Positions 38,869-52,406 of a DNA stretch of 64,000 nt are shown here, piece by piece. Within the stretch, counting starts at the first letter, position 1. Each line of letters opens with the position of its first letter. The notes below the pieces were generated by a model that saw only the letters and a list, made by a program, of their open reading frames with translations, made no database searches and was not told the DNA's origin. The stretch is taken from assembly GCA_963704165.1 (NCBI GenBank), contig CAVPHD010000004.1, positions 352,001 to 416,000 of the forward strand, written 5' to 3'. The translations under genes were made by a program, and so were the position numbers. The stretch comes from an uncultured delta proteobacterium. GTDB taxonomy: Bacteria > Myxococcota_A > UBA9160 > SZUA-336.

Positions 38869-41590
38869 TCAGTTCGTGAAGGCGGCGAGCCGCGCGGCGA
38901 CTTCGCGCGCGCTGGAGCAGCGCCGTTCCGGGTCCTTCTCGAGCAGATGGAGGATGAGCTCGGCGAGCCCGTCGGGGATGCCCGACGCGCGCTCTCGGGG
39001 ATCGGGTACGGGTGAGTGACGATGGTGGTAGACGACGTCGCCGTCGCGGTACGGGACGCCTCCGGTCGCGAGCTCGAAGAACGTGACACCGAGCGAATAC
39101 AGGTCCGCGCGCGCGTCGACGCTCTCGCCCGCAGCCTGCTCCGGCGCCATGTAGTACGGAGTCCCGCCGATCACCGTCGCGGAGCGGCGCACCTCTTCGA
39201 GCATCTTGGCGAGGCCGAAGTCCATGATCTTCACCACCTTGCCGCGCGTGAAGAACAGGTTCGAGGTCTTGATGTCGCGATGCACGATGCGACGCTCGTG
39301 CGCGTACTCGAGCCCCGCGCAGATCTGCACGCCCAGCCGGGCGCAGTCGCGCGGCGAGAGCCGCCCGGCGCGACGCAGGATCACGTGCAGGGGCTCGCCC
39401 TCGAGCAGCTCCATCGTGATGAAGAACGTGCCGTCTTCCTGATCCGCGTCGTGGATCGTCACGATGTTCGGGTGATTCAAGGCGGCGGCGGCGCGCGCCT
39501 CGCGCAGGAAGAGCTCGACGGCGGTCGGATGGTCGCGCAGGTTGTCGGGCAGGCGCTTCAGCGCGACCTCGCGGCCGAGACGTCGATCGCGCGCGCGGAA
39601 GACCACGCCCATTCCGCCGGCGCCGATCTGCTCCAGGATCTCGTAGCGGCTCTCGGCCGAGGCCTGCGCGCGCCGCCCGGACGACGCTCGACCCGAACCG
39701 GCCGATCGGTCCGCCGGAGATCCGCTTGCGCAGCCCCTCGATCCGCGTCGAGAGCTCTGGCCAGGTCGGCTCCTCCTCGCGCAGCTTCTCGAGCGATTCG
39801 AGCGCGCGCGGAAGATCTCCGCTGCGCTCCCAGAGCTCGGACAGACGTGAGCGCAGCTCGGGTGCGGCGCTCGGGGCGTCGGAACGCTCCAGCCGCTCGT
39901 GAAGCTTGTGAGCGGCGAGGTCGACGTGCCCTTCGGCTTCGAGCGCATCGACCAGCATCAGACACGCTCGCGTGTAGTTCGGATCGCCCGGCAGAACCTG
40001 CTGGAGCAGCTTGATCGCGCGACTCCGGTCGTCGCGATCGCGCGCGAGCGCGGCGGCATCGAAGTGCTCTCCGCGGCGCTCGAGGACGCCGATCACACGG
40101 TCCGCGTCCTCGGCCTCGCGGTAGCAGTCGAGCGCGCGGTCGAGCTCCGATGCCGCTTCGTACGCCTGCCCGGCGCGGACCGGGTCGCCCGCGCGGCGGT
40201 ACATGTCGCCGGCACGCACGGGCTCGCCCGCCTTCTCGTAGAGCGAAGCCGCCTGCGCCCAGTCCTCGAGCTCCTCGCGCAGGCGAGCCGCTTCGCGGGA
40301 AGTGCCCGGCGTACTCGAAGTGCTCCGCCGCGCGCGAGCGGTTGCTCTGCTCGACGTGCATCCGCGCGAGCAGGAGGTTCGAGACCTTGTCCTGTCCCTC
40401 GCGCGCGAGCGCGCGCGCGGCCGATTGGCACGTCGCCCTGCAGGTACGGCGCGACGGCGGGCGGGCAGCCCTTGAAGAGCACGCCCTCGGACACGCCGAG
40501 GTCCACCTCGACGATCCGCGTCGCGTAGTCGTCGACGTCGACCTCGCGCTCCGCGACCCGGTCGCCGGAGCCGACCGCGATCACGTGGCGACCCATCGGC
40601 AGGCCGATGCGTACCGACTGTCCGCGCGTGTGACGCAGCGTGTCTGGACGACCGTGGGCCGAGATCGTGCACTCGCGCACGGTCTGGCGGTCCCAGACGA
40701 CTCGAACCTCGACCGGGCAGGAGCGTGGCCGCAGGTCGAACTCGAGGCGGTGCGTGTCGCGGCTGCGCACGTGGATGAGCTGGGATTCGAAGGGCTGCTC
40801 GATCGGCTCGTCGCCCGAACCCGAGAACAGATCGCCATCGACCGTGATCCAGTAGCGCCCGGGAGTGAGCCCTCGGAACTGCGTCTCTCGCGCCACCAGA
40901 TAGTGTTCGGTCCGTGACGAGACCTTGCCGTGCGTCGCTTCGCGCTCGCCGCGGGGCGCCCGCCCGGTCCGGGGTTTTCCGTGCGAGAGCGTGACCGTGA
41001 AGCTGCCGCGCAGGTCGTCGGGGTAGGCGATGCAGACCACCAGGTCTCCACGGCCGCGAACGGTGCGCAGGACGACGAGCGCGACGACGAGTCCGAGCAG
41101 CGCTGCGAGCAAGCTGCGCCGTCCGGTCGGTTCAGTCGCGAAATCCGCGATCGGCAGCATTCGGCGCTGCCATTCGCCGGGAACCGCTCCCCAGGCGCGC
41201 TTCAGGGCCGTCTCGATCTCGGGCGACCAGCGCTGCCAGCTCTCCTCGACCCATGCGCGCATGTTCGGCGCCGACGAGGCGATCGAGCTCGCCGAACGAC
41301 GGGGGCCCGGGCGGCGTTGCGGGGATGTACGGCCGGGACGGAATCCTGCGCGGGCGACTCGAGGCTCGATCCGAGCGCGGATCCCGGGCGCCGTCCGTCG
41401 CCGCGTCGTCCGCCCCTTGCCCCATGTCGAGCAGGTTCCAGCTTCGCGAAGGCGCCTCGGGTTCCCGAGCGATCGATTCGGTCACCACCGGTTCGGCGGC
41501 GGACTCCTCCCCGCGCGCCGGCAGAACGGCGAGAAACCAGGCGGCGGCAAGCAGGATTGCCGCCGATCTTGCGTGTCTCGTGATGCGCAT
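38869..41590 (-). CDS. Membrane-anchored Ser/Thr protein kinase with TPR-like repeats, about five apparent frameshifts
   Basis: Pieces across frames: signal-like N-terminus (MRITRHARSAAILL), TM LLAALLGLVVALVVL, helical repeats (AASLYEKAG, AGQAYEAA), Hanks kinase IGAGGMG / VALK / HRDIKTSN / DFG / YMAPE. Confidence 0.82.
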
Positions 41591-41631: not shown

Positions 41632-41685
41632 GTGGTCGCCGCCTCGCCCGAACCCGGGCTACGATGGTTCGGGGAGCCTGGCCGA

Positions 41686-43110
41686 ATGCGGGAACGGACC
41701 TTCCTGACACAAGAAATCGATCGAGGTCCGTCGGGGCCGAAGATCGGTGCGTTCTTCGACGTGGACGGCACCCTCCTCGCGGGCTTCTCGGCCATCGCGT
41801 TCTGGCGGGACCGGCTGCTCTCGGGACAGATGAGCCTGTCCGACGTTTCCGAGAACCTGCTCGCGTTCGTCGGTTTTCAGCGCGGGCGGGTGGGGTTCTC
41901 CGGCATGCTCGCCGCGTGGTCCGGAATCCTGCGCGGCACACCGGAGCAGGATCTCGTCGCGACGGGCGTGCGGCTCTTCGACTCCGAACTCGCCGCACTC
42001 GTGTATCCCGAATCGCGAGCGCTCGTCACCGCGCACCTGCGTCGGGGCCACACCGTGGCGATCGTGTCGGCAGCGACGCGCTACCAGGTCGAGCCGCTCG
42101 CGCGGGATCTCGGCATCGAGCACGTGCTCTGCACGCGGCTCGAGGTCGAGGACGGGAAGTTCACCGGGCGCTACATCTCGCCGCCGTGCTGGGGCGAGGG
42201 CAAGGCCAGCGCGGTGCGGGAGCTCGCGTCGCGCGACGGTGTAGACCTCGAGCAGAGCTACTTCTACAGCGACGCCGCCGAGGATCTGCCGCTCTTCGAG
42301 ATCGTCGGGCGGCCGCGGCCGACCAATCCCGACGCGAGGCTCGCGCGCATCGCCGAGCGGCGCACCTGGCCGGTGCGGAAGTTCAAGAGCCGCGGGCGTC
42401 CCGGAGTCGCGGAGGTCGTGCGCACGATCCTCGCCACGACGTCGGGCGCGACCGCGTTTCTGCTCGGACTGCCGCTCGCATTCGTGACCGGGCGGCCGAA
42501 GGAGCTCTTCGACTTCTCGCTCGCCGCCTGGGGCGATCTCGGCACCGCGCTCGCCGGAATCGAGCTCGCCGTCGAGGGCGAGGAGCACCTGTGGTCGGAC
42601 CGCCCGGCGGTCTTCATCTTCAACCACCAGAGCGCGATCGACGTGCTGCTGCTCTGCAAGCTCCTGCGCCGCGACTTCGTCGGCGTGGCGAAGAAGGAGC
42701 TGCGGCGCGTGCCGTTCCTCGGGTCGTTCGCACGCTTCTCGGGCACGGTCTTCATCGACCGCGCGAACTCCACGCTCGGCGATCCGCGCGCTCCAGCCCG
42801 CCGTCGAACGCGCTCCGCCGCGGCACCTCGCTCGCGATCGCGCCCGAGGGCACGCGCACGCCGACGCCGCGGCTCGCACCCGTTCAAGAAGGGCGCCTTC
42901 CACATGGCGATGCAGGCGCGCGTGCCGATCGTGCCGATCGTGATCAAGAACGCGCTCGACGCGCTGCCCAAGCACGGGCTCGTGATCCGCCCGGCCCGAA
43001 TCGAGGTCGTCGTGCATCCGCCGATCTCGACGCGCGGCTGGGTGCGCGAGGACATCGACCTGCACATCGCCGAGGTGCGCAGGCTGTACGAGGAGACGCT
43101 CTCGGACTGA
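41686..43110 (+). CDS. HAD-IB phosphatase / lysophospholipid acyltransferase fusion
   Basis: FFDVDGTL, YSDAAEDLP, NHQSAID, FKKGAF. The PEGTR motif is out of frame at about 42780-42880, consistent with compensating indels. Confidence 0.9.
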   Translation: MRERTFLTQEIDRGPSGPKIGAFFDVDGTLLAGFSAIAFWRDRLLSGQMSLSDVSENLLAFVGFQRGRVGFSGMLAAWSGILRGTPEQDLVATGVRLFDSELAALVYPESRALVTAHLRRGHTVAIVSAATRYQVEPLARDLGIEHVLCTRLEVEDGKFTGRYISPPCWGEGKASAVRELASRDGVDLEQSYFYSDAAEDLPLFEIVGRPRPTNPDARLARIAERRTWPVRKFKSRGRPGVAEVVRTILATTSGATAFLLGLPLAFVTGRPKELFDFSLAAWGDLGTALAGIELAVEGEEHLWSDRPAVFIFNHQSAIDVLLLCKLLRRDFVGVAKKELRRVPFLGSFARFSGTVFIDRANSTLGDPRAPARRRTRSAAAPRSRSRPRARARRRRGSHPFKKGAFHMAMQARVPIVPIVIKNALDALPKHGLVIRPARIEVVVHPPISTRGWVREDIDLHIAEVRRLYEETLSD

Positions 43111-43134
43111 CGGAGCGCCGAAGTGAGACGGCTC

Positions 43135-43162
43135 ACAAGCGGAGAGCCGGATCGAACGATAC
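43135..43162 (+). promoter_or_regulatory. Possible sigma-28-like promoter ACAA-N16-AACGATAC
   Basis: Direct reading, 32 nt upstream of the membrane-protein ATG. Confidence 0.3.
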
Positions 43163-43194: not shown

Positions 43195-44061
43195 ATGACG
43201 ACCCTCACGACCACGCCAGCCTCCTCGTCCAGACATCGGCTCGACGCCGCGCCGCCGCGCGTGGTGCTGCTGCCCGTCGTGACGACGCTGTGCGCGATTG
43301 GCGTAGTCCTCGGGTTCCTCGCCCGCGACGAGATGTACGTCACTCCCGATGCCGGACTCGGGTACGGACTCGGAGTCGCGGGACTGTGCGCGCTCTGCTC
43401 GCTCCTGCTCTACTCGCTGAGGAAGCGCGCGCGCTCTCTTCGGTCGTGGGGGGCTCTCCGGCACTGGTTCCACGTCCACATGATGCTCGGAGTGGTCGGT
43501 CCCACGCTGGTCCTCTTCCACGCCAACTTCGAAGTGCACTCGACGAACGCGGCGGTCGCTCTCGGAGCGATGGTGATCGTCGCCGCCAGTGGCTTCGTCG
43601 GGCGATTCGCCTACTCGCGCGTTCATCTGGGATTGTTCGGCCAGCGCGAGACCCTCCGCGACGTCAGCGCGCGAGCGGATGCGAGCCGCAGCGCGCTTCA
43701 CACCGCGCTGCGCGCCGTTCCGGAAGTCGAACTTTGCGTTCGCGAGTTCGAGCAGCGGGCGCTCGCTCGGTCCGGTGGGGTTCTGGCCGAGCTCTGGCGC
43801 GCGGTCGAGCTCGGCCGACAAACGCGTTCGATCCGACGGCGCGCGCGAGCGATGCTTCGCCAGGCTTCGCCGGCTGCTCTGCCGGCGGGTGCGAGTGCGG
43901 TCTCTCGCGGTCTCGACACCCACCTCGCACTGGTGCGGCGCGTGGCGGAGTTCGGTTTCTACGAGGGCGTTCTGTCCCTCTGGCACGCGCTGCACGTTCC
44001 GCTCGGCGTCGTGCTCTACATCGCGGCGGCGATTCATGTGATCGCCGTGCATCTCTACTGA
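43195..44061 (+). CDS. Inner-membrane His-rich protein of multiheme cytochrome cluster (cytochrome b/ferric-reductase-like)
   Basis: About five hydrophobic segments with TM His residues: WFHVHMMLG, LVLFHANF, WHALHVPL, IHVIAVHLY. Confidence 0.75.
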   Translation: MTTLTTTPASSSRHRLDAAPPRVVLLPVVTTLCAIGVVLGFLARDEMYVTPDAGLGYGLGVAGLCALCSLLLYSLRKRARSLRSWGALRHWFHVHMMLGVVGPTLVLFHANFEVHSTNAAVALGAMVIVAASGFVGRFAYSRVHLGLFGQRETLRDVSARADASRSALHTALRAVPEVELCVREFEQRALARSGGVLAELWRAVELGRQTRSIRRRARAMLRQASPAALPAGASAVSRGLDTHLALVRRVAEFGFYEGVLSLWHALHVPLGVVLYIAAAIHVIAVHLY

Positions 44062-45630
44062 GTGCGCGCGAACGCACTCGCGAGTCGGCTGGCACTCGTC
44101 GTCGGTCTCTTGGCTTCGAGCGCCGGCGCGCAGACGTTCGAGCGACTCGTGATGCCCGGAGTGCTCTCGAAGGCTCACGCGGACCTCGAGTCCGACTGTT
44201 CGAAGTGCCACACGCCCTTCAAGCGCGCGGAGCAGTCGGAGCTCTGCCTCGGCTGCCACGACCACCAAGCGGTCGCAGCCGACATTCGCGACAAGCGGGG
44301 ATTCCACGGGACGGCTCCCCCCGTCGAAGGCGCCGAGTGCAGATCGTGTCATCCGGAGCACAAGGGGCGCGACGCCGACATCATCGGTCTCGAGCGGAGC
44401 TCCTTCCCCCACGACTTCACCGACTACCCGTTGCGCGGTGCGCACGTGCGGGTCTCCTGCGAAGGATGTCACGACCCGGACAAGGCCTTCCGCGACGCAC
44501 GCGCGAGCTGTGCCGACTGCCACGCCGCGGCGGACGTGCACCGCGGGGAGCTCGGAAAGGACTGCGAAAGCTGTCACACGGAAGAGCGCTGGCGAGAGGC
44601 TCGATTCGACCACGGCAAGACGAAATTCCCTCTCGAAGGAAAGCACCGGGACGTCGCGTGCGCGCTTTGCCACGCGGGCGAGCGCTATTCGGGAATACCG
44701 ATGGACTGCGTCGGCTGTCATCGCGTGGATGACGTCCACCGGGGTCGATTCGGCGACGCGTGCGAGAGCTGTCATACGAGCGGCCAGTGGAAGACGCAGA
44801 ACTTCGACCACGCAGGAAAGACCCGGTTCCCACTCACCGGCAAGCATGCGAAGGTGCCTTGCGAGGGCTGTCATCCGGACGGCCTGGTCGATCAGAAGCT
44901 CGAGCTGAACTGCCTCTCGTGTCACCGCGGAGACGACGTCCACGACGGACGAAACGGCGCCGACTGCGAGCGATGCCACGGAACATCTGCCTGGAAGCCC
45001 GCGACGTTCGATCACGATCGGAACACGGAGTTTCCGCTTCACGGAGCCCATCGAGAAGTGAGCTGTGCGGCCTGTCACACGAAGCCGGTGCATCAACAGA
45101 AGCTGGGTTCGACCTGCATCGCCTGTCACGTCGCGGACGACGTGCACAAAGAGCAGCTCGGCGGCGACTGCGGCCGCTGTCACGGCGAGATCAGCTGGAA
45201 GGAGAAGGTCAGGTTCGATCACGACCTGGCGCGTTTTCCATTGCTCGGGCTGCACGCCGTCGTCGCATGCGAGGAGTGCCACTCGACCGGGGTCTATCGC
45301 GATACGGAGCAGAAGTGCGTCGCCTGCCACGCGCGGCAAGACGTGCACGAGGACCGGCTGGGTCCGAAGTGCGAGGTCTGCCACACCCCCAACGGCTGGA
45401 AGGTCTGGAAGTTCGACCACGCCACGCAGACGAAGTTCCCGCTCCGGGGCGGCCACTCTCAAGTGGCGTGTGAGACCTGCCACGTCGAGCCGGTCGCGAC
45501 CAAGCCCTCTCTCTCGACCGGATGCGACTCCTGTCACGGCGCGGAGGATCCCCACCGAGGTGCGTTCGGAAGGAACTGCGAGCGCTGTCACGGCGAGCAG
45601 TCGTGGAGAGACGTGAGGATCGCGCGCTGA
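44062..45630 (+). CDS. Periplasmic multiheme cytochrome c with 21 CxxCH motifs (seven triheme modules)
   Basis: Signal peptide ending AGA. 21 CxxCH counted by hand. Repeating FDH..T.FPL.G.H..V.C unit. Confidence 0.95.
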   Translation: MRANALASRLALVVGLLASSAGAQTFERLVMPGVLSKAHADLESDCSKCHTPFKRAEQSELCLGCHDHQAVAADIRDKRGFHGTAPPVEGAECRSCHPEHKGRDADIIGLERSSFPHDFTDYPLRGAHVRVSCEGCHDPDKAFRDARASCADCHAAADVHRGELGKDCESCHTEERWREARFDHGKTKFPLEGKHRDVACALCHAGERYSGIPMDCVGCHRVDDVHRGRFGDACESCHTSGQWKTQNFDHAGKTRFPLTGKHAKVPCEGCHPDGLVDQKLELNCLSCHRGDDVHDGRNGADCERCHGTSAWKPATFDHDRNTEFPLHGAHREVSCAACHTKPVHQQKLGSTCIACHVADDVHKEQLGGDCGRCHGEISWKEKVRFDHDLARFPLLGLHAVVACEECHSTGVYRDTEQKCVACHARQDVHEDRLGPKCEVCHTPNGWKVWKFDHATQTKFPLRGGHSQVACETCHVEPVATKPSLSTGCDSCHGAEDPHRGAFGRNCERCHGEQSWRDVRIAR

Positions 45631-45642
45631 CCTTCGCCTGAC

Positions 45643-47208
45643 TCAGAACAGGCCGAGCAATCCTCGGCTCTTCCCGGATTCGGTCTCGAGATAGCTTGCG
45701 ATCTCTGGATGGCCGGCCTGACGGGCCTGCGCTGCCGCGGTGAGGCCGATCTCGTTCTTTGCGCCGATGCGTACGTCTCGCCGGACCAGAAGCTCCACGA
45801 CCGCCTGATGTCCCGACGCTGCTGCAAACATCAGGGCCGTGTCGCGACGTTGCCCACGCGCATCGGGATCCGCATTCGCGTCGAGGAGGGCTTTGGCGGT
45901 CGCGAGCTGCCCGTTGCTCGCGGCGAGCATGAGCGCGGTGTTCCCCAGGCGGTTGGGTGCGTCGATCCCGGCACCGCGGTCGAGCAGGGCGCGCACGGTG
46001 ACGACATCGCCCGCGGCCGCAGCACGCGAGAGCACGGGCGTCCCATCCGCGCAGATCGTCGCGGTCGAGGCGCCGTGTTCGACGAGGGCGGCGGAGATCG
46101 CCGGGCGTTGACCGCGCAGCGCCAGACACAGCATCGACTCGCCAGAGTCGTCACGCCTCTCCGCTCGTGCTCCGAGAGCGAGCAGCGCGCGCGCGGCATC
46201 GGAGCTTCCAGAGCGTATCGCGTAGACGAGAGGCGGGATCCCGTCCGCGTCCGGATCGTCGGGACGGGCACCTGCGCGGACGAGAAGCTGGACGATCTCG
46301 GCCGAGCCGTGACTTGCGGCCCAGCCGAGCGGGGTTCGTCGCGCGCCATCGACGGCGTTCGGATTTGCGGAGTTCTCCAGCAATACGCTGACCGTGCTCA
46401 CGTGGCCTTCGCTCGAAGCGAGGGACAGCGCGTTCCGGCCATCTGCCGCGCGAGCGCGGAGGTCCGCGTGCGCGCGCACGAGCGCGGAGACGATCTCGGC
46501 GTGGCCGTTGCGTGCGGCTGCGAGCAGGGGGGTGTCACCTGCATCGTCGCGCACCTCGAGCGAGACCCTTCGCGCGATCAGACCGAGGGCGAGGTCGGTC
46601 TCGCCACGCCTCGAAGCGACGACGAGCGCGTCGGTTCCGTCGTGGGTCTCCGCCAACCAGGCCGCGGAATCCGCCGCACGCACCGACGCGGGAACGGGCT
46701 GCGGCGCCGCCCGCGTCTTTGCCCGCGCGCGTTCCTTGGCGGGTGCCGGGCTCCGAGCAGTTCTCGCCTGCGCGTCCTCGGGCTCCGCCTCGAGTTCGTC
46801 GAGCTTCGCGATCGCCCCCGCGTGTCCCTGATCCGCGGCCGCCCGAAACCAGCGCAACGCGGCCTTCCGATCGCGCTTCGTTCCCCAGCCGTCGCGATAC
46901 AGTCCAGCGACACAGAATTGTGACCGAGCATCGCCGCTCTCTGCCGAGGTGAGCCACCAATGGAACGCCTGCTCGGGGTTCTGCTTCACGCCGCGTCCCG
47001 AGCGATACAGCGAGCCGAGCTGGTATTGCGCGTCGGGATCTCCCTTCTCGGCGAGTACGCTCCAGAGAGTCGCCGCGCGTTCGAAGTCGCGCAGGCGAGC
47101 CGCCAGACGGGCGTCCTCCGCCGGGTCGGCGAGAGAGGTCGAGGCGGTCGAGAGCGCCACGGCCACCACCACGAGAAGCGCCCAGACGCTAGTGAAGTGG
47201 TGTGCCAC
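45643..47208 (-). CDS. Exported Sel1-repeat plus ankyrin-repeat protein
   Basis: Signal peptide. Sel1 repeats (AQYQLGSLYRSGRGV, WFRAAADQGH). Ankyrin repeats (GDTPLLAAARNGH, GNTALMLAASNG). GTG 47208 is the probable start. Confidence 0.9.
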   Translation of the reverse strand: MAHHFTSVWALLVVVAVALSTASTSLADPAEDARLAARLRDFERAATLWSVLAEKGDPDAQYQLGSLYRSGRGVKQNPEQAFHWWLTSAESGDARSQFCVAGLYRDGWGTKRDRKAALRWFRAAADQGHAGAIAKLDELEAEPEDAQARTARSPAPAKERARAKTRAAPQPVPASVRAADSAAWLAETHDGTDALVVASRRGETDLALGLIARRVSLEVRDDAGDTPLLAAARNGHAEIVSALVRAHADLRARAADGRNALSLASSEGHVSTVSVLLENSANPNAVDGARRTPLGWAASHGSAEIVQLLVRAGARPDDPDADGIPPLVYAIRSGSSDAARALLALGARAERRDDSGESMLCLALRGQRPAISAALVEHGASTATICADGTPVLSRAAAAGDVVTVRALLDRGAGIDAPNRLGNTALMLAASNGQLATAKALLDANADPDARGQRRDTALMFAAASGHQAVVELLVRRDVRIGAKNEIGLTAAAQARQAGHPEIASYLETESGKSRGLLGLF

Positions 47209-48511
47209 GTTTCGTCTCCGTCTCGATTCCGATCGCTTGCAGGAACGCGGTTGGCAGCACACCCCCCACGCAAACGATCACGGCGTCGCTCGCGACGTCT
47301 TCGATCCCGTCTCCGGTCTCAAGTACCGCGACGCCCGGGCGGATCTCGACGACCGTGGAGCCGAGCCGAACGAACAGCTGACCCGAATCGCGCGCAGCTT
47401 CGACACGGGCGCGGTTTGCCGGCTTCACGCGCGAGAACGCATCTCCCCGGTAAGAAAGCGTGACGCGAGTGCCGGGCTCGCTCGCGAGGCCCAGCGCCGC
47501 CTCGAGCGCGCTGTCTCCGCCGCCGACGACGAGTACGCTCTGACCGCGGTACTGCTCCGGATCGACGAGCCGGTAGACGACGTGCGGCGACTCCTCTCCG
47601 GGAACTCCGAGCTTCGCGGGCGTTCCGCGACGACCGATCGCGAGCACGAGCGTTCGCGCGAGGTGACTCGAACGCGAGGTCCTCACTTCGAAGCCGGTTT
47701 CCACTCGTCCGACGGCCTCGACGCGTTCCTGGTAACGGACGTCGAGGCCGGTCCCTCGAACGACATCGGTGAAGAGCTGGAGCAGCGACTCCTTGCTGAT
47801 CTCGCCCGTCGGGATCCGACCGTACAGAGGCAAGGTGCAGGCGGACGTCATGACGATCTTGCCTCGGGGATAGTGCGCGACCGTTCCACCCAGGCTCTCC
47901 TGCTCGATCGTCGCGAACCGAAGACCCTTCTCCTTCGCGGCGAGCGAGGCCGAGAGACCGGCGGGTCCGGCGCCGACGATCAAGACGTCGAGAACCTCGT
48001 CCGAGGTGCGCCCGTCGAGAGCTCCGACGACCGACTCGATCACCTGTCGGCCCTGCTCGATGGCATTCCGGATCAGGCCCATTCCTCCGAGCTCGCCGGC
48101 CACGAAGATACCCGGCACAGCGGTCTGGAAGTCGGGGCCGAGGCGCGGGATCTCGACTCCGCGACTCTCGGTTCCCAACACGAGCGTGATCGCGTCGAAC
48201 GGGCAGGCGGTCTGGCACGCGCCGTGACCGATGCAGTGCGTGGGGTTCACGAGCACGGCCTTTCCGCGCACGAGACCCAGCACGTTCTCCTCCGGGCAGG
48301 CTTTCACGCACGAGCCGCAGCCGAGACAGCGATTCGGATTGATCGAAGGGTGAAGCGACGCGGGCTCGGTGAGCTTCGATGCGATGGCTTCGCGAAGCGT
48401 CGCAGCGCTTCGGCGCTCCATTCTTCGCCTCGACGCGGAGTATCCGGCGAGCGCGAGCCCGAACGGGACGAGATAGAGCAGAACGAAGACGGAAGACGAC
48501 TCAGAAATCAT
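47189..48511 (-). CDS. Membrane-anchored ferredoxin (two Fe-S motifs) fused to a TrxB/YpdA-like FAD/NAD(P)H oxidoreductase
   Basis: N-terminal TM, CLGCGSCVKACP, CIGHGACQTACP, GAGPAG, GGGDSALEAA, SYRG. No redox CxxC. Confidence 0.9.
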   Translation of the reverse strand: MISESSSVFVLLYLVPFGLALAGYSASRRRMERRSAATLREAIASKLTEPASLHPSINPNRCLGCGSCVKACPEENVLGLVRGKAVLVNPTHCIGHGACQTACPFDAITLVLGTESRGVEIPRLGPDFQTAVPGIFVAGELGGMGLIRNAIEQGRQVIESVVGALDGRTSDEVLDVLIVGAGPAGLSASLAAKEKGLRFATIEQESLGGTVAHYPRGKIVMTSACTLPLYGRIPTGEISKESLLQLFTDVVRGTGLDVRYQERVEAVGRVETGFEVRTSRSSHLARTLVLAIGRRGTPAKLGVPGEESPHVVYRLVDPEQYRGQSVLVVGGGDSALEAALGLASEPGTRVTLSYRGDAFSRVKPANRARVEAARDSGQLFVRLGSTVVEIRPGVAVLETGDGIEDVASDAVIVCVGGVLPTAFLQAIGIETETKRGTPLH

Positions 48512-50675
48512 ATCGGAGCCCACCCGAGAAGGCGTAGATGAACTCATCGCCGCCGGTCGCGTCGAACGAGCGGCTCGTCCATTCCAATCCCGCATCTCCG
48601 AAGAGCGTCAGCTTCCAGATGCGGTACTCGACACCGAGGTACGGCCGGAGGGTGAGCGATCCGTTCCGCGCACGCGAAGCGGCCGCGGCCGCGGTCGGAT
48701 CCTCTGCGGTCTCGTCGGGATCGGGAATGAACTCGTCGCGCCCGCGGCGATTTCGCCAATCGAGGCGGATGCGCGGCAGGACGCGGAGCTTCGGCGTGAT
48801 CGGGTAGCGCTCGTTGATGATCAACGACCAGGTGTTCGAGACGTCGCCGTCGAAGTAGCGCACACCGATCGTGCCGACGTCACCGTTCGTGAAGAGATTC
48901 GAGACGACGAGCTGCGGGTAGTAGGAGAACTCCCAACCCGTGCTCTCCATCGCGTCGACGCCGCCAGATGCGGGAGTGTCGGACAGGTACGAAGCCGAGA
49001 CGTCGAGCGCGATCTGCACCCGATCGCTCAGCTGGTGAGATGCCCCGAGGCTCGTCAGCGCGGAGCGCGGCGTGCGATCCTTCGCGAGCTGCTTGATCTC
49101 GCTCCGTGAGTACAGCTCGTGCAGATCCTCGAGGCGATCGACGCCCTGGCCTTGAATCGCGTTCCAGCTGGTCAGGATCGGGCTGTTCCGATAGTCGACG
49201 AACAGGGTCGCGCTGGTCGTGGGACCGAGCTGCCAGTTCCCGCTCAGGAGGGCGGTGTTGAGATCGCCGAAGTAGAGGTCGTAGTCGACGTAGCTCGCCA
49301 CGAAGAGATCGTCGTCGGCATAGCGAAGCTCTCCGCCGATGCCGTTCCGGTCGAGCATTCCGTCGGCGTGCTGTCGAAGCGAGAAGATCTGCACATCGAC
49401 GAGCCCGCCAAGGTCTTCGGCGTCGAGGCTCAGGCCGTACAGGAATCGGCCCGTTTCGATCGAGTCGGAGTTCTGGATCTCGACCGGGGAGCCGCCGCGA
49501 ACCGTGACGCGCCACTGCTCGGCGAGCCGACGACTGAGGCGAACGCCGTCGAAGCGCGTCGTGACCCCGGCCGTGTTTCCCGGCTGCCGTCCGAACGTCG
49601 CGGAGTACGGTCCCGTGCGCTGCGCGACGTCGAGGAAGAGCGCGCTGACCCGCGTGTCGTTGTGGTCCATTCCTTCGGCGAAGTCGAAGCGGTACGACGC
49701 CGAGGCCAGGCCTCGCCACGCGAACTTGTCTCCGCGAGCGCGAGTCGAGACGCTGAGATCCGAGAACAGCGATGAATCGGTGAGGAGCGCGCCGGTTGCA
49801 TCGCTGTCCAGGGTTTCGTGCCGGTATTGCGTCGATGCGCTGCCGAAGAGCTCGAGCTCACTCGGGCGCGTCGCGGCCATCGTTCCGGTACCCGACCGCC
49901 CCGAGGGCTTCGCGCCTGCGGTCAGAAGCGCGTCCAGCCGCTGGCGGACTCGCGCGGATCCCTCGCCATCCGGATACCACTTCAGGTACTCCTCGTACTC
50001 GGCCTTCGCGTGTGCGAGCTGACCACGGCGCTCGCGCGCGACGCCGAGCAGCTCCTTCGCCTCGCGCGAATTCACGTGCTCGGGAAGAGTGACGATCTTC
50101 GTGAAGACACGGATCGCCTGGTCGAAATCGCCGGCCGTCATGGCGTTTCGCCCGGACGCCATGAGCTCGTGGCTGCGCAGGAGCGGGTCGCTGGATTCGG
50201 GTCGCGAGGCGGCGCCGCGACCCTCTCGAGCCCGCACCGAGACGACGAGGCTCCGGAAGTCTCCACCCTGCCTGACCTCGAAGCTGACGCCGCGAGAGAA
50301 GCGAAGGACCAGGTAGCGCCCGTCGGGTCGCCCGCCCTCGTAGCTGACGTCGAGAAGGGGAACCGGGGAGTCGGGCGGCGCGGAGAGGGTCTCGGTGCCG
50401 GCGAGCAAGGAGACGGTGCGCGGGGCCAGAGAGATCGGGTCGATCTGGATCTGCAGCGTTTCGCCGCTCGCCGCGGGGGCGTGGCGGAGATAGCGAACCG
50501 GCGTCATGAAGCGAACGACCACGTCGATCGTTCCGCCGTGCTCGCGCATCTCGATCGCCTCGAGGACGCGTTGCGGCGTCGGCGCCGCTCGCGCTCGCCC
50601 CGGCGCGAGGAGTGCCAGCAAGAGCCAGGCGAGCATCGGGACGATTGTGCCGGGCCGCCCCGGCGTCGGAATCAC
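48501..50675 (-). CDS. Putative outer-membrane beta-barrel (porin) with N-terminal AMIN-like and TPR regions
   Basis: Signal peptide, TPR (AKAEYEEYLKWYPDG), about 450 aa of amphipathic beta-strand pattern, C-terminal BAM-type signal GGLRYDF. Confidence 0.75.
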   Translation of the reverse strand: MIPTPGRPGTIVPMLAWLLLALLAPGRARAAPTPQRVLEAIEMREHGGTIDVVVRFMTPVRYLRHAPAASGETLQIQIDPISLAPRTVSLLAGTETLSAPPDSPVPLLDVSYEGGRPDGRYLVLRFSRGVSFEVRQGGDFRSLVVSVRAREGRGAASRPESSDPLLRSHELMASGRNAMTAGDFDQAIRVFTKIVTLPEHVNSREAKELLGVARERRGQLAHAKAEYEEYLKWYPDGEGSARVRQRLDALLTAGAKPSGRSGTGTMAATRPSELELFGSASTQYRHETLDSDATGALLTDSSLFSDLSVSTRARGDKFAWRGLASASYRFDFAEGMDHNDTRVSALFLDVAQRTGPYSATFGRQPGNTAGVTTRFDGVRLSRRLAEQWRVTVRGGSPVEIQNSDSIETGRFLYGLSLDAEDLGGLVDVQIFSLRQHADGMLDRNGIGGELRYADDDLFVASYVDYDLYFGDLNTALLSGNWQLGPTTSATLFVDYRNSPILTSWNAIQGQGVDRLEDLHELYSRSEIKQLAKDRTPRSALTSLGASHQLSDRVQIALDVSASYLSDTPASGGVDAMESTGWEFSYYPQLVVSNLFTNGDVGTIGVRYFDGDVSNTWSLIINERYPITPKLRVLPRIRLDWRNRRGRDEFIPDPDETAEDPTAAAAASRARNGSLTLRPYLGVEYRIWKLTLFGDAGLEWTSRSFDATGGDEFIYAFSGGLRYDF

Positions 50676-52303
50676 CAGTCACCTCTGGACGCGCGGTGTT
50701 CCCCACTTCGCGACTCCTGGATCCGGGTCAGGGAACTGTCGGTGTAGGTGTGGCAGCTTCCCGTGCAGTCGCGGAGCTCGCTGACCGTGTAGAGCACTCG
50801 AGGCGTATCGACCTTCTCGTGCTTGTCGGCTCTGAAGTCCGTGGCGTGGCAGCCCGCGCAGTCGGGCCGGTAGCTCGCGTTCCGCCAGGCATTCGCCTGC
50901 GTGTTGCCAATGTGACAATCGCTGCAGTCGCCCACCGAGCGGTGACCGACGGGGTAGTTCGGTGAGCTGTGGCTGAACGTGGAAGGCGTCCAACGCGTGG
51001 TGGAGTGGCAATCCACGCAATCGAGTGACGTCACGAAATGATTCGACGGCTTTCCTGTCGCGCTACTCCCGTTGTGACAGGTCCCGCAGTTCCCGGTGAC
51101 GCTGGCGTGGTCGAAGCGCGCGGGGAGCCAGGCCAGCGTCGAGTGGCAGTCCTCACAGGTGTTCGCGCTGGCGACGTGATTCGCCGACTTGCCCGTCGCG
51201 GTCGTGCCGTTGTGACAGGTGATGCAGTTCCCGGTGACGCTGGCGTGGTCGAAGCGCGCGGGGAGCCAGGCGTTGGTGGTGTGGCAGTCCTCGCAGGCAT
51301 TCGAGCTCTGGATGTGGTTCGAGTTCTTGCCGGTGGCGGTCGTGCCGTTGTGACAGGTGGAGCAGGCGCCGGTGACGCTGGCGTGGTCGAAGCGCGCGGG
51401 GAGCCAGGCGTTGGTGGTGTGGCAGTCCTCGCAGGCATTCGAGCTCTGGATGTGGTTCGAGTTCTTGCCGGTGGCGGTCGTGCCGTTGTGACAGGTGGAG
51501 CAGGCGCCGGTGACGCTGGCGTGGTCGAAGCGCGCGGGGAGCCAGGCGGTGGTGGTGTGGCAGTCCTCGCAGGCGTTCGAGCTCTGGATGTGGCGCGAGT
51601 TCTTGCCGGTGGCGGTCGTGCCGTTGTGACAGGTGGAGCAGGCGCCGGTGACGCTGGCGTGGTCGAAGCGCGCGGGGAGCCAGGCGGTGGTGGTGTGGCA
51701 GTCCTCGCAGGCGTTCGAGCTCTGGATGTGGCGCGAGTTCTTGCCGGTGGCGGTCGTGCCGTTGTGACAGGTGGAGCAGGCGCCGGTGACGCTGGCGTGG
51801 TCGAAGCGCGCGGGGAGCCAGGCGTTGGTGGTGTGGCACACATCGCAGTTGTTCGACGACGCCGGGTGATTCGCCGGCTTGCCCATGACGATGGTCCCGT
51901 TGTGGCAACTGGCGCAGCTGGCGGTCGCGTCGAGGTGATCAAATCGTGCGCCGCGCCAGGTCGCGACGGAGTGACATTCCTCGCAGGGTGCCGAGGTGCT
52001 GATGTGCCTCACCGGCTTGGCGGTCAGCGCTCGGGATCCCGCGCCTCCGTGGCACGCGGCGCACTTCGTCGGTGTTCCCTGGAACGCTCCCGCGATGTGG
52101 CACGCCTCGCAGGCGACGTCGGCGTGGGCTCCATTCAACGGAAAGCCGGTGCGCATGTGGTCGAACTCGAGCGGCGCCTCGGCCCTGGGTGCCGCCGCTG
52201 CCGAAAAGATCAGCGCCACCGAAACTCCGCCGATCGCGAGCCAGGTTCCGACTCGAGCTGCAGGTTCCAGATGGAGCAGGGGCGAACGGCTACCGCGCGG
52301 CAT
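50672..52303 (-). CDS. Multiheme cytochrome c with 19 CxxCH plus one CxxxCH and 46-aa diheme tandem repeats, probably extracellular
   Basis: Hand count of motifs. Thr/Ser/Asn-rich. Hydrophobic N-terminal signal. Start is uncertain (ORF open to 52408). Confidence 0.93.
   Translation of the reverse strand: MPRGSRSPLLHLEPAARVGTWLAIGGVSVALIFSAAAAPRAEAPLEFDHMRTGFPLNGAHADVACEACHIAGAFQGTPTKCAACHGGAGSRALTAKPVRHISTSAPCEECHSVATWRGARFDHLDATASCASCHNGTIVMGKPANHPASSNNCDVCHTTNAWLPARFDHASVTGACSTCHNGTTATGKNSRHIQSSNACEDCHTTTAWLPARFDHASVTGACSTCHNGTTATGKNSRHIQSSNACEDCHTTTAWLPARFDHASVTGACSTCHNGTTATGKNSNHIQSSNACEDCHTTNAWLPARFDHASVTGACSTCHNGTTATGKNSNHIQSSNACEDCHTTNAWLPARFDHASVTGNCITCHNGTTATGKSANHVASANTCEDCHSTLAWLPARFDHASVTGNCGTCHNGSSATGKPSNHFVTSLDCVDCHSTTRWTPSTFSHSSPNYPVGHRSVGDCSDCHIGNTQANAWRNASYRPDCAGCHATDFRADKHEKVDTPRVLYTVSELRDCTGSCHTYTDSSLTRIQESRSGEHRASRGDW
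51070..51836. repeat. 138-bp tandem repeat, six copies of the core and four near-identical full units
   Basis: tcgaagcgcgcggggagccagg recurs at 51111, 51249, 51387, 51525, 51663 and 51801, an exact 138-bp spacing. Confidence 0.97.
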
Positions 52304-52406
52304 CGCCTCAAGATCGACATCTGCGTACGCGCTGACTGTGAGCTGGATTACATCGCTGCGGCTCCGGCTCGCTCGCGGATGGTCGCGCGACGGGTACTCT
52401 AGGGCC

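Follow-up and report, generated by a model that had tools for sequence, protein, structure and literature searches.

Do six neighboring genes of an uncultured myxococcotal bacterium form one electron route from cytoplasmic NAD(P)H to the cell exterior, and at which protein would the electrons enter it? The genes lie in a window of 64,000 nucleotides, the whole stretch of DNA that was analyzed, and were described in an initial annotation as two converging operons for a porin-cytochrome conduit of about 41 hemes.

Gene content and the PCC3 core

Inspection of the open reading frames (ORFs) of the window reproduced this layout and its coordinates (Table 1). All six ORFs are uninterrupted, and the stops of the converging operons, at 45630 on the + strand and 45643 on the - strand, leave a gap of 12 bp. 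The overlapping or abutting starts and stops were likewise recovered: the two + strand genes abut, while on the - strand the overlaps are 4 nt (cytochrome and barrel), 11 nt (barrel and flavoprotein), and 20 nt (flavoprotein and Sel1-ankyrin). Starts were selected by homology and by the sequence of the junctions; those of the longest ORFs (48595, 47262, and 52408) probably lie farther upstream than the true ones. The motifs of the two cytochromes add up to exactly 41. In the host genome of 3.87 Mb, whose assembly is 84% complete, no other ORF exceeds 13 CxxCH, and therefore the heme-rich pair is no chance pattern.

Table 1. Genes and CRP-type palindromes of the locus, in window coordinates.
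Feature	Coordinates	Strand	Remarks
Inner-membrane protein (IMP)	43195..44061	+	288 aa, 13 His; abuts the 21-heme gene
21-heme cytochrome c	44062..45630	+	522 aa, 21 CxxCH, signal peptide
Sel1 + ankyrin-repeat protein	45643..47208	-	signal peptide; accessory
Membrane-anchored Fe-S flavoprotein	47189..48511	-	440 aa
Outer-membrane TPR/beta-barrel protein	48501..50675	-	signal peptide; predicted 22-strand barrel
20-heme repeat cytochrome c	50672..52303	-	543 aa, 19 CxxCH + 1 CxxxCH
CRP-type palindrome 1	43122..43137		TGTGA-N6-TCACA, 1 mismatch
CRP-type palindrome 2	52337..52352		1 mismatch

The resemblance to PCC3 porin-cytochrome clusters that had been pointed out for this locus amounts, by the published sequence criteria, to membership. 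PCC3 was defined by He et al. 2017 as four components, in a model that ends at the quinone (PMC5566968); it is also covered in a survey of the Gallionellaceae (PMC10734462). The four core genes of the locus fit the sequence definition of these components. The IMP carries two Wx3Hx13H motifs (at 91 and 263, with H95/H109 and H267/H281) and SGxxG at 132; the three elements, which characterize the PCC3 IMP, are present in 86/86 homologs, in which the four histidines are invariant. Four hydropathy segments exceed the cut-off, and the His-bearing helix 3 was placed from the motif and the loop charges, so that five transmembrane helices are predicted for the protein; it is also predicted to be a di-heme b, ferric-reductase-like protein. 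Helices 3 and 5 carry the paired histidines by which NOX/FRD proteins are recognized. PF01794 (Ferric_reduct) did not match the IMP of the window and matched 2 of the 86 homologs (best E 0.033); comparison of the IMP profile with solved structures returned nothing significant (best E 0.27), and the plasmid collection held no IMP match.

The 21-heme cytochrome has a signal-like N-terminus and 24.9 aa per heme, inside the PCC3 range for the periplasmic multiheme cytochrome (about 21 hemes, 22-39 aa per heme), and is predicted to be periplasmic. It has 24 spare histidines, which makes bis-His ligation probable. In the GTDB locus survey, a multiheme ORF lies directly 3' of the IMP gene in 71/71 loci with room for one. 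The 20-heme cytochrome, with 27.1 aa per heme and 42.6% T+S+A+G, has the character of the repeat-rich second cytochrome of PCC3 and is built of Thr/Ser/Ala-rich repeats of 46 aa. Its gene contains a 138-bp tandem repeat (5.7 copies, 94% identical) whose copies the assembly may have miscounted, and the versions in class relatives have 11-31 motifs. The N-terminus resembles a signal peptide and lacks a lipobox Cys; we take the protein for the "extracellular MHC" of PCC3, which would place it at the surface.

The product of 48501-50675 had been taken for a beta-barrel, and the AlphaFold2 model (109 homologs, mean pLDDT 86.6) bears this out: a beta-sandwich (residues 38-148) and a TPR region (164-253) precede a predicted barrel of 22 strands (273-723), the number also listed for the L. 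cholodnii porin, and the last residue is Phe. Its Foldseek neighbors are outer-membrane barrels, of generic kinds only. The barrel gene is present in 22/24 full-width loci. Fused-module operons also carry secreted ORFs of roughly 600 aa whose C-termini look barrel-like in sequence (5 seen). Genes for a type II secretion secretin and for cytochrome c assembly are present in the host genome.

The expectation that all six genes would occur together elsewhere held for the core and the flavoprotein and failed for the Sel1-ankyrin gene, which is an accessory found in 28/77 loci and missing from 49/77. It lies downstream of the flavoprotein gene in the 28/28 loci that carry both, and its product is predicted to be periplasmic, where it may act as a scaffold or chaperone. 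A heterotrophic host was rejected as a novelty: most known PCC3 hosts are not iron oxidizers, and such hosts were already published (PMC5566968).

The Fe-S flavoprotein and its association with the IMP

The flavoprotein consists of a transmembrane anchor, two Fe-S motifs (one with the invariant His96), and an FAD/NADPH domain with the NADPH-type motif GxGxxA and the invariant R355. The structure closest to its model is Bdr (Z 21.3, rmsd 4.9, 263 aligned), relative to which the C-terminal FAD segment has been relocated to residues 112-168. Motifs and fold comparison point to an NADPH enzyme of Bdr/FNR-like type that is circularly permuted and anchored in the membrane. Against TIGR04018 (Bdr/YpdA) it scores 153.6 bits, below the cut-off of 339.9, and its domain order is not the canonical one. 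Thioredoxin reductase was rejected as an identity: the redox CxxC is absent, and beyond the Fe-S motifs the sole Cys that is conserved is C414 (46/56).

That the flavoprotein is coupled to the membrane protein, as initially suggested, is supported by co-occurrence, fusions, and topology. Among 61 class relatives, the 12/12 genomes with a PCC3-type IMP carry the flavoprotein, and 12/13 the reverse. In a sample of 251 genomes of the phylum, an IMP-family match is present in 60/60 that encode a full-length flavoprotein, 0/170 IMP-negative genomes encode one, and for 62/67 flavoprotein copies the distance to an IMP match is no more than 10 kb. In a sample of a betaproteobacterial order (351 genomes), 23/23 IMP genomes carry it, and in a 24th flavoprotein genome the copy is split. 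The sampled genomes are kin, and these counts are consequently not independent. Moreover, the two proteins form a single ORF in 14/14 candidate loci fetched, in the order flavoprotein-IMP in 4 and IMP-flavoprotein in 10, and 13/14 of these loci adjoin 23-42-heme cytochromes. The fusions came from genome searches; a search for longer IMP homologs gave one protein only. The charge bias fits a five-helix IMP with its N-terminus inside and C-terminus outside and a flavoprotein anchor with its N-terminus outside, a predicted topology with which both fusion orders are compatible; the IMP-flavoprotein order would give six helices followed by a cytoplasmic FAD/NADPH domain, an NADPH-oxidase-like layout. 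In P0241, an Fe-S domain is fused to the IMP, and a distant paralog system pairs the same flavodomain, there unpermuted and joined by cNMP and Fe-S domains, with a 10-heme cytochrome and an IMP that is divergent.

Several observations count against a single conduit fed by the flavoprotein. In the window itself, the flavoprotein gene sits in the opposite operon and does not adjoin the IMP gene. The flavoprotein lies outside the fetched stretch in 26/77 distinct GTDB loci, among them 4 of the 24 whose flanks each span 9 kb or more; 27/28 genomes in which it falls outside hold a copy elsewhere, and the only copy of one genome (G012) is a 42% one far from the cluster. Some IMP-flavoprotein pairs (L136 and L147) have no adjoining cytochrome or barrel; in some cases, then, the module feeds no wire. 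The flavoprotein and IMP trees agree in 19/26 strong flavoprotein splits; as shared descent would give the same, this agreement was not counted as evidence.

Nor is the flavoprotein special to this host, as had been supposed. S. lithotrophicus ES-1 has two PCC3 clusters (Slit_0867-0870 and Slit_1446-1449); Slit_0866 adjoins the PCC3 porin, and flavoprotein-family peptides also come from a second copy, Slit_0525 (PMC12016527 Table S3). Three of the five ES-1 flavoprotein peptides are exact in at least one homolog of the family, whereas the four IMP peptides all stem from a variable loop and do not discriminate. In the ES-1 proteome, Slit_0525 and the IMP co-vary with rho 0.88, a value that four unrelated controls also reach (0.84-0.91), and the "extracellular" PCC3 cytochrome was undetected. 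The co-occurrence, the fusions, and the ES-1 copy therefore identify the flavoprotein, on genomic grounds, as an unrecognized fifth core gene of PCC3 rather than a peculiarity of one host.

CRP-type boxes at both operons

The first palindrome lies 57 bp before the IMP start, and in three genus relatives its arms are kept and its spacer is changed; the second lies between the start of the 20-heme gene and a divergent permease gene (ATG 52407). Only 25 CRP-type sites exist genome-wide, and a palindrome of this type precedes the IMP gene in 10/86 homolog regions, against 0.77 in shuffles. Matches inside cytochrome genes were discounted because CxxCH codons mimic the box. A CRP-family regulator likely controls both operons together; the host genome encodes four CRP-family proteins. 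CRP control is known for the mtr genes. Upstream of the IMP genes, FNR boxes were at background (0/86), and the genes near the remaining CRP-type boxes of the host form no coherent respiratory regulon. Rex was rejected as the regulator: the 84%-complete genome has no PF06971 match, and Rex sites have a pattern that the spacers here do not follow.

Direction of electron flow and comparison with known systems

From the genes, motifs, co-occurrence, fusions, and predicted folds, we lean, with slightly better than even confidence, toward a PCC3-type conduit in which the flavoprotein and the di-His IMP act as a split NADPH-oxidase-like module that sends electrons outward from NADPH through two heme wires and the barrel. 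Cytoplasmic NADPH would reduce the FAD and then the two Fe-S clusters of the flavoprotein; through contact with the IMP, electrons would pass to its inner b heme (H95/H267), then to the outer one (H109/H281), and on to the 21-heme periplasmic cytochrome. From there they would reach an exported 20-heme cytochrome, located inside the 22-strand barrel or past it, and an acceptor outside. Flow outward from NADPH would cost proton-motive force, as in NOX, by textbook potentials, and therefore the system would serve as a reductant valve or would reduce low-potential solids. Most likely it spends energy and is neither an energy-conserving respiration nor an Fe(II) oxidase.

A link to the quinone pool is the published hypothesis (PMC5566968): the IMP would be a quinone-active cytochrome b and the flavoprotein a second input, like the flavin reductase for MsrQ. 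Quinone binding is described for MsrQ-like proteins, which are of the same superfamily (10.1101/2021.01.07.425746), some residues near the putative outer heme are invariant in the IMP family, and energy conservation would be possible. This account is nevertheless rather unlikely, as it leaves unexplained that the flavoprotein surpasses the IMP in conservation (mean column identity 60% vs 43%), that it is present in nearly all IMP genomes, and that fusions exist in both orders. The position of the Sel1-ankyrin gene after that of the flavoprotein, the predicted location of its product, and the nearest enzyme, Bdr, a disulfide reductase without CxxC, would suit a maturation or maintenance module, in which IMP and flavoprotein supply periplasmic reductant for the huge cytochromes, with a Sel1-ankyrin chaperone, and the wire is fed otherwise; cytochrome c maturation does employ repeat-protein chaperones. 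We judge it unlikely, considering the host's own assembly genes, the lack of any other quinol-oxidizing partner in the cluster, the IMP abutting the 21-heme gene wherever there is room, as a redox partner would, and the many loci without Sel1-ankyrin.

The NADPH electrons could also end in the periplasm, taken up by a heme capacitor, by reactions with oxidants or ROS, or by reductases there, with the barrel exporting or admitting something else. The missing lipobox, the generic fold neighbors of a 22-strand barrel that PF11854 does not match, and the undetected ES-1 homolog of the 20-heme protein agree with this; the near-constant barrel gene, the barrel-like ORFs even in fused-module operons, and the type II secretin make it decidedly improbable. 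An inward conduit, through which an outside donor would reduce NAD(P)+, is very improbable. Iron oxidizers were the first known hosts of PCC3, FNR-like enzymes can run in both directions, and the IMP of PCC3 copy 2 increased in iron-oxidizing Sideroxydans CL21 cells; Fe(II), however, is far too positive for NADP+ reduction against the membrane potential, the host genome (84% complete) has no RuBisCO match, and both ES-1 PCC3 clusters decrease on Fe(II) (PMC8788666).

PCC3 serves as a genomic marker and is named in the literature as a candidate pathway of iron oxidation, with a function so far only predicted. If the NADPH flavoprotein is the true entry, the default direction of PCC3 is outward and bypasses quinones, extracellular electron transfer has a route distinct from MtrCAB, the reading of PCC3 clusters in metagenomes changes, and a compact cytoplasm-to-electrode wire is on offer. 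In its widest form, which we put forward tentatively and with less than even confidence, PCC3 has been read backwards: it would be a five-gene, quinone-independent machine of many phyla, under CRP-type control, in which a split, permuted NADPH dehydrogenase and a two-heme IMP (NOX-like, fused at least twice independently) feed 40+ hemes leading to the surface. The question can be tested directly on the naturally occurring single-chain fusions and on the named genes of cultured Sideroxydans ES-1.

Like PCC3, the locus has an IMP close to 300 aa in which both motifs and SGxxG are present, a periplasmic cytochrome whose 21 hemes equal the PCC3 median, a second cytochrome of low-complexity Thr/Ser/Ala/Gly repeats, 25-27 aa for each heme, and a TPR-bearing barrel with 22 predicted strands. 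It differs in its host, a member of the Myxococcota where the published text lists Alpha-, Beta-, and Gammaproteobacteria, in its division into two operons that converge and are each preceded by a CRP-type box, and in the flavoprotein and Sel1-ankyrin genes, which lie outside the four-gene definition given there. With MtrCAB/MtoAB it has in common a barrel and multiheme cytochromes; an assignment to MtrCAB was rejected, as PF11854 (MtrB/PioB) matches neither the barrel protein nor anything in the host genome, TIGR03508 gives 84 vs 192 bits, the cytochromes are not decaheme, and the cluster has no CymA-type partner. PCC4 and the clusters of MHC, IMP, and "other redox protein" combine an IMP with two HX13H motifs, an adjoining multiheme cytochrome, and a redox protein of 412-805 aa that is left unnamed (PMC5566968, section 16 and Supplementary Table 6); they differ in having 4-18-heme cytochromes and mostly no porin. 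Two paralog loci (L032/L033), whose flavodomain keeps the canonical order and comes with cNMP and Fer4_11 domains, appear from size and context to be of this type. The flavoprotein has the fold, the NADPH-type motifs, and the CxxC absence of Bdr/YpdA and TrxR-type ferredoxin-NADP+ reductases (7A76, 7A7B, 3LZW, 5YGQ), to which it adds the membrane anchor, the two Fe-S motifs, and the circular permutation. Finally, the paired His on helices 3 and 5 are common to the IMP and the NOX/FRD superfamily (PF01794), including MsrQ and MsrQ-like NAD-binding fusions (10.1101/2021.01.07.425746), and the IMP-flavoprotein fusion reproduces the NOX-like six helices with a cytoplasmic FAD/NAD(P)H domain; in contrast to that superfamily, the PF01794 match is not above noise, the dehydrogenase is of the TrxR fold with Fe-S motifs rather than of the FNR type (PF00175), and the electron output here would be a multiheme wire.

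Six genes and the proteins they encode

The six genes proposed for the conduit in the initial annotation are all real and uninterrupted, and its two converging operons do end 12 bp apart. On the minus strand, the overlaps are 4 nt (cytochrome/barrel), 11 nt (barrel/flavoprotein) and 20 nt (flavoprotein/Sel1-ankyrin). The runner-up cytochrome of the whole genome has 13 heme motifs. Labels of its nearest homologs place the host in the Myxococcota. Its genome, 84% complete, encodes cytochrome c assembly genes, three heme-copper oxidase-family genes, a type II secretin and a transhydrogenase; RuBisCO and MtrB found no match in these 84%. The cytochrome c assembly and transhydrogenase matches are among several genes of the assembly that look frameshifted, so indel errors are possible.

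Features of the window and of related loci (IMP, inner-membrane protein)
Feature	Coordinates	Strand	Properties
IMP	43195-44061	+	membrane protein, 288 aa; abuts 21-heme gene
21-heme protein	44062-45630	+	cytochrome, 522 aa, 21 CxxCH
20-heme protein	52303-50672	-	cytochrome, 543 aa, 19 CxxCH and one CxxxCH
Barrel	50675-48501	-	outer-membrane protein, 724 aa
Flavoprotein	48511-47189	-	440 aa
Sel1-ankyrin protein	47208-45643	-	521 aa
TGTGA-N6-TCACA, one mismatch	43122		upstream of plus-strand operon
TGTGA-N6-TCACA, one mismatch	52337		upstream of minus-strand operon
Ser/Thr kinase with TPR-like region	38869-41262		apparently split over frames near 40093
HAD-acyltransferase	41632-43110		upstream of IMP; short out-of-character stretch toward its end
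13-heme cytochrome	L117:9748-11217 (G000:C4:20747-22219)		shares FxHxxxxFPLxGxH repeat with 21-heme protein; adjoins 5-heme ORF; no IMP or porin match there
9-heme cytochrome	L120:5726-7996 (G000:C7)		fused to two thioredoxin-like (AhpC/TSA) domains
Paralog system	L032:6482-12524		additional N-terminal FHA-like region in flavoprotein
Paralog system	L033:7276-12190
Secreted ORFs, ~600 aa	L133:861-2657; L134:3648-5474; L135:14582-16600; L142:10499-12487; L145:1249-4344		near fusions

The IMP carries Wx3Hx13H at positions 91 and 263 and SGxxG at 132, all three present in 86/86 aligned homologs, and the Arg/Lys-rich loops that follow helices 2 and 4 point to an N-in/C-out topology. Bis-His ligation is likely in both cytochromes, since their spare His (24 and 22) exceed their hemes (21 and 20). 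The outer-membrane protein was modelled from 109 sequences as the barrel that had been claimed, with 22 strands (pLDDT 86.6), together with a signal helix, a beta-sandwich and TPRs. Modelled from 56 sequences (pLDDT 90), the flavoprotein has a membrane helix at its N-terminus, a pair of Fe-S motifs, namely C62/C65/C68/C72, with Ser at position 65 in 23/56 sequences, and the invariant C93/H96/C99/C103, and a TrxR-fold domain with GxGxxA and an invariant R355 but no CxxC. Residues 171-435 align to residues 1-273 of Bdr, the closest structure (Z 21.3, rmsd 4.9, 263 aligned). This domain is circularly permuted, because residues 112-168 match a segment located after the domain in one same-genome flavoprotein and five paralogs.

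A flavoprotein partner within a known cluster type

PCC3 porin-cytochrome clusters are defined in the main text of He et al. 2017 (PMC5566968) by four genes, for a porin, an extracellular multiheme cytochrome, a periplasmic one with a median of 21 hemes, and an IMP bearing precisely the Wx3Hx13H and SGxxG motifs seen here. The resemblance to PCC3 suggested initially held for each sequence criterion tested; the cluster type is already known, its function being predicted only. That main text names neither a flavoprotein, pyridine nucleotide, FAD, thioredoxin nor ankyrin; the paper's gene maps, Supplementary Table 4 or Supplementary Figure 4 might draw the flavoprotein gene. In the mainly non-subscription literature searched, we found in print no flavoprotein partner, fusion, permutation or CRP-type box, no occurrence of Slit_0866 or Slit_0525, HX13H in He 2017 alone, and, partly from titles and abstract starts, no work on PCC3 cytochromes with a flavoprotein; the available parts of PMC10734462 and 10.64898/2026.05.27.727921 do not mention one.

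Judged by its distribution, the flavoprotein is a core partner of the IMP. Co-occurrence, asked of all six genes in the initial annotation, gave both partners together in 12/12 genomes with a PCC3-type IMP among 61 (the host and 60 relatives), in 60/60 genomes of the phylum that have a full-length flavoprotein (matched there by an IMP-family protein) and in 23/23 IMP genomes of a betaproteobacterial order (351 genomes), counts that are descriptive, since the genomes are kin and thus non-independent. A 13th flavoprotein genome among the 61 has the cytochrome, barrel and Sel1-ankyrin protein and no IMP match. Across the phylum sample (251 genomes), the full-length flavoprotein (E below 1e-130) occurs in 0/170 IMP-negative genomes, and 21 IMP-positive ones have partial, distant or no copies. 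The IMP is directly divergent from the flavoprotein for 23/24 copies in the betaproteobacterial order. The best 80 of 572 confirmed GTDB loci, reduced by three duplicates to 77, many ending at contig edges, include the flavoprotein in 51, the barrel in 42 and the Sel1-ankyrin protein in 28; where the locus lacks the flavoprotein, 27/28 genomes encode it elsewhere. Membership is constant though gene order is rearranged in at least five ways.

Many nitrifier-lineage genomes (Nitrospiraceae, L041-L110) have PCC3 with the flavoprotein displaced by several kb to 20 kb, and repeat cytochrome ORFs with 4-43 heme motifs each. The converging six-gene layout recurs on a contig labelled Spirochaetales (L088), whose flavoprotein groups with Myxococcota copies, by transfer or mis-binning. 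In L025 (G005), most genes of the cluster are frameshifted, through assembly error or decay.

Data on Sideroxydans lithotrophicus ES-1 bear on the pairing from both sides. Slit_0866, adjoining the PCC3 porin Slit_0867, is listed in Table S3 of PMC12016527 as a 430-aa FAD-dependent oxidoreductase, with peptides matching the flavoprotein family. A second copy, Slit_0525, has an iBAQ of 3.15e8 vs 3.29e8 for the IMP Slit_1446, so that ES-1, in the data available, has two flavoproteins alongside two IMPs. Against the pairing, Slit_1445 and Slit_1450, neighbours of the second PCC3 cluster, are unrelated, and co-variation of Slit_0525 with the IMP was no better than that of controls in these data.

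Regulation and the predicted electron path

The boxes upstream of both operons, which we take to be CRP sites, are two of 25 one-mismatch sites in the genome; that at 52337 could instead serve a divergent permease gene. Upstream of IMP homologs, the one-mismatch box occurs in 10/86 (shuffles: mean 0.77, maximum 3; control spacers of 5 and 7: 2 and 1 of 86) and the two-mismatch box in 31/86 (shuffles: mean 8.6, maximum 18). One of four CRP-family genes of the host is preceded by a box. A palindrome TGGGA-N6-TCCCA, a putative variant operator, is found in Nitrospira and some gammaproteobacteria; it is conserved 140-200 bp upstream of the IMP with an AT-rich spacer, mostly in Nitrospiraceae (L045, L056, L064, L073, L077, L095, L102, L109, L110).

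We lean towards a predicted path in which NADPH electrons would pass through FAD to the Fe-S clusters of the flavoprotein, then to predicted b hemes of the IMP, the 21-heme wire and the 20-heme wire at the barrel, and finally to an acceptor outside the cell. Electron export with the proton released inside spends proton-motive force. Such a conduit would serve as an outlet for reductant or as a strong reductase at the cell surface, and as neither a respiratory nor an iron-oxidising chain.

Fe(II)-driven inward reduction of NADP+ is infeasible on redox potentials, and inward electron flow seems to us very improbable. Accessible parts of the Sideroxydans literature report both ES-1 PCC3 clusters down on Fe(II) (Zhou et al., PMC8788666), the extracellular PCC3 cytochrome undetected (Keffer et al., PMC11429942) and, in iron-oxidising CL21 cells, a rise in the copy-2 IMP only (10.1101/2025.02.27.639646). 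The main text of PMC5566968 proposes a quinone link for PCC3, most of whose hosts are not known metal oxidizers; a quinone-linked conduit with the flavoprotein as second input is the least unlikely alternative, ahead of a maturation module, which we doubt, and a periplasmic sink, slightly more doubtful still.

Fusions, paralogs and known reductases

Fourteen phylum loci whose IMP and flavoprotein matches share one open frame were examined, plus 6 unfused ones; all 14 are single ORFs with the His motifs, CxGHGxCxxxC and GGGDSA. Four fusions (four families) run flavoprotein-IMP and 10 (three families, eight from one) IMP-flavoprotein; as both orders exist, fusion probably happened independently at least twice. 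Cytochromes with 23-42 hemes, kin to the 21-heme protein, adjoin 13 of the fusions. The ~600-aa secreted ORFs nearby have barrel-like ends, do not match our porin profile and, for the three scanned, do not match Pfam; they are possibly a second porin family for the module. In the stretches retrieved for L136, L147 and L148, IMP-flavoprotein pairs or a fusion lack an adjoining wire operon, although in L148 cytochrome genes for 10 and 27 hemes lie close by on the opposite strand; the module may serve other outputs there.

A second flavoprotein family in class relatives (L032, L033, L129-L131) combines an unpermuted, canonical-order Bdr-like flavodomain with two cNMP domains and Fer4_11, an Fe-S domain, which suggests cyclic-nucleotide gating of electron export. 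In L032 and L033, where the pairing recurs as a distant paralog system, its gene lies immediately ahead of those for a 10-heme cytochrome and a divergent IMP with Wx3Hx13H; the family is probably of PCC4 or Table S6 type.

NOX and ferric reductases have six helices followed by a cytoplasmic FAD/NADPH domain. The likeness of the IMP His pattern to theirs was noted in the main text of PMC5566968, and the IMP-flavoprotein fusion would give the same layout, with the flavoprotein anchor as the sixth helix leading into a cytoplasmic FAD/NADPH domain.
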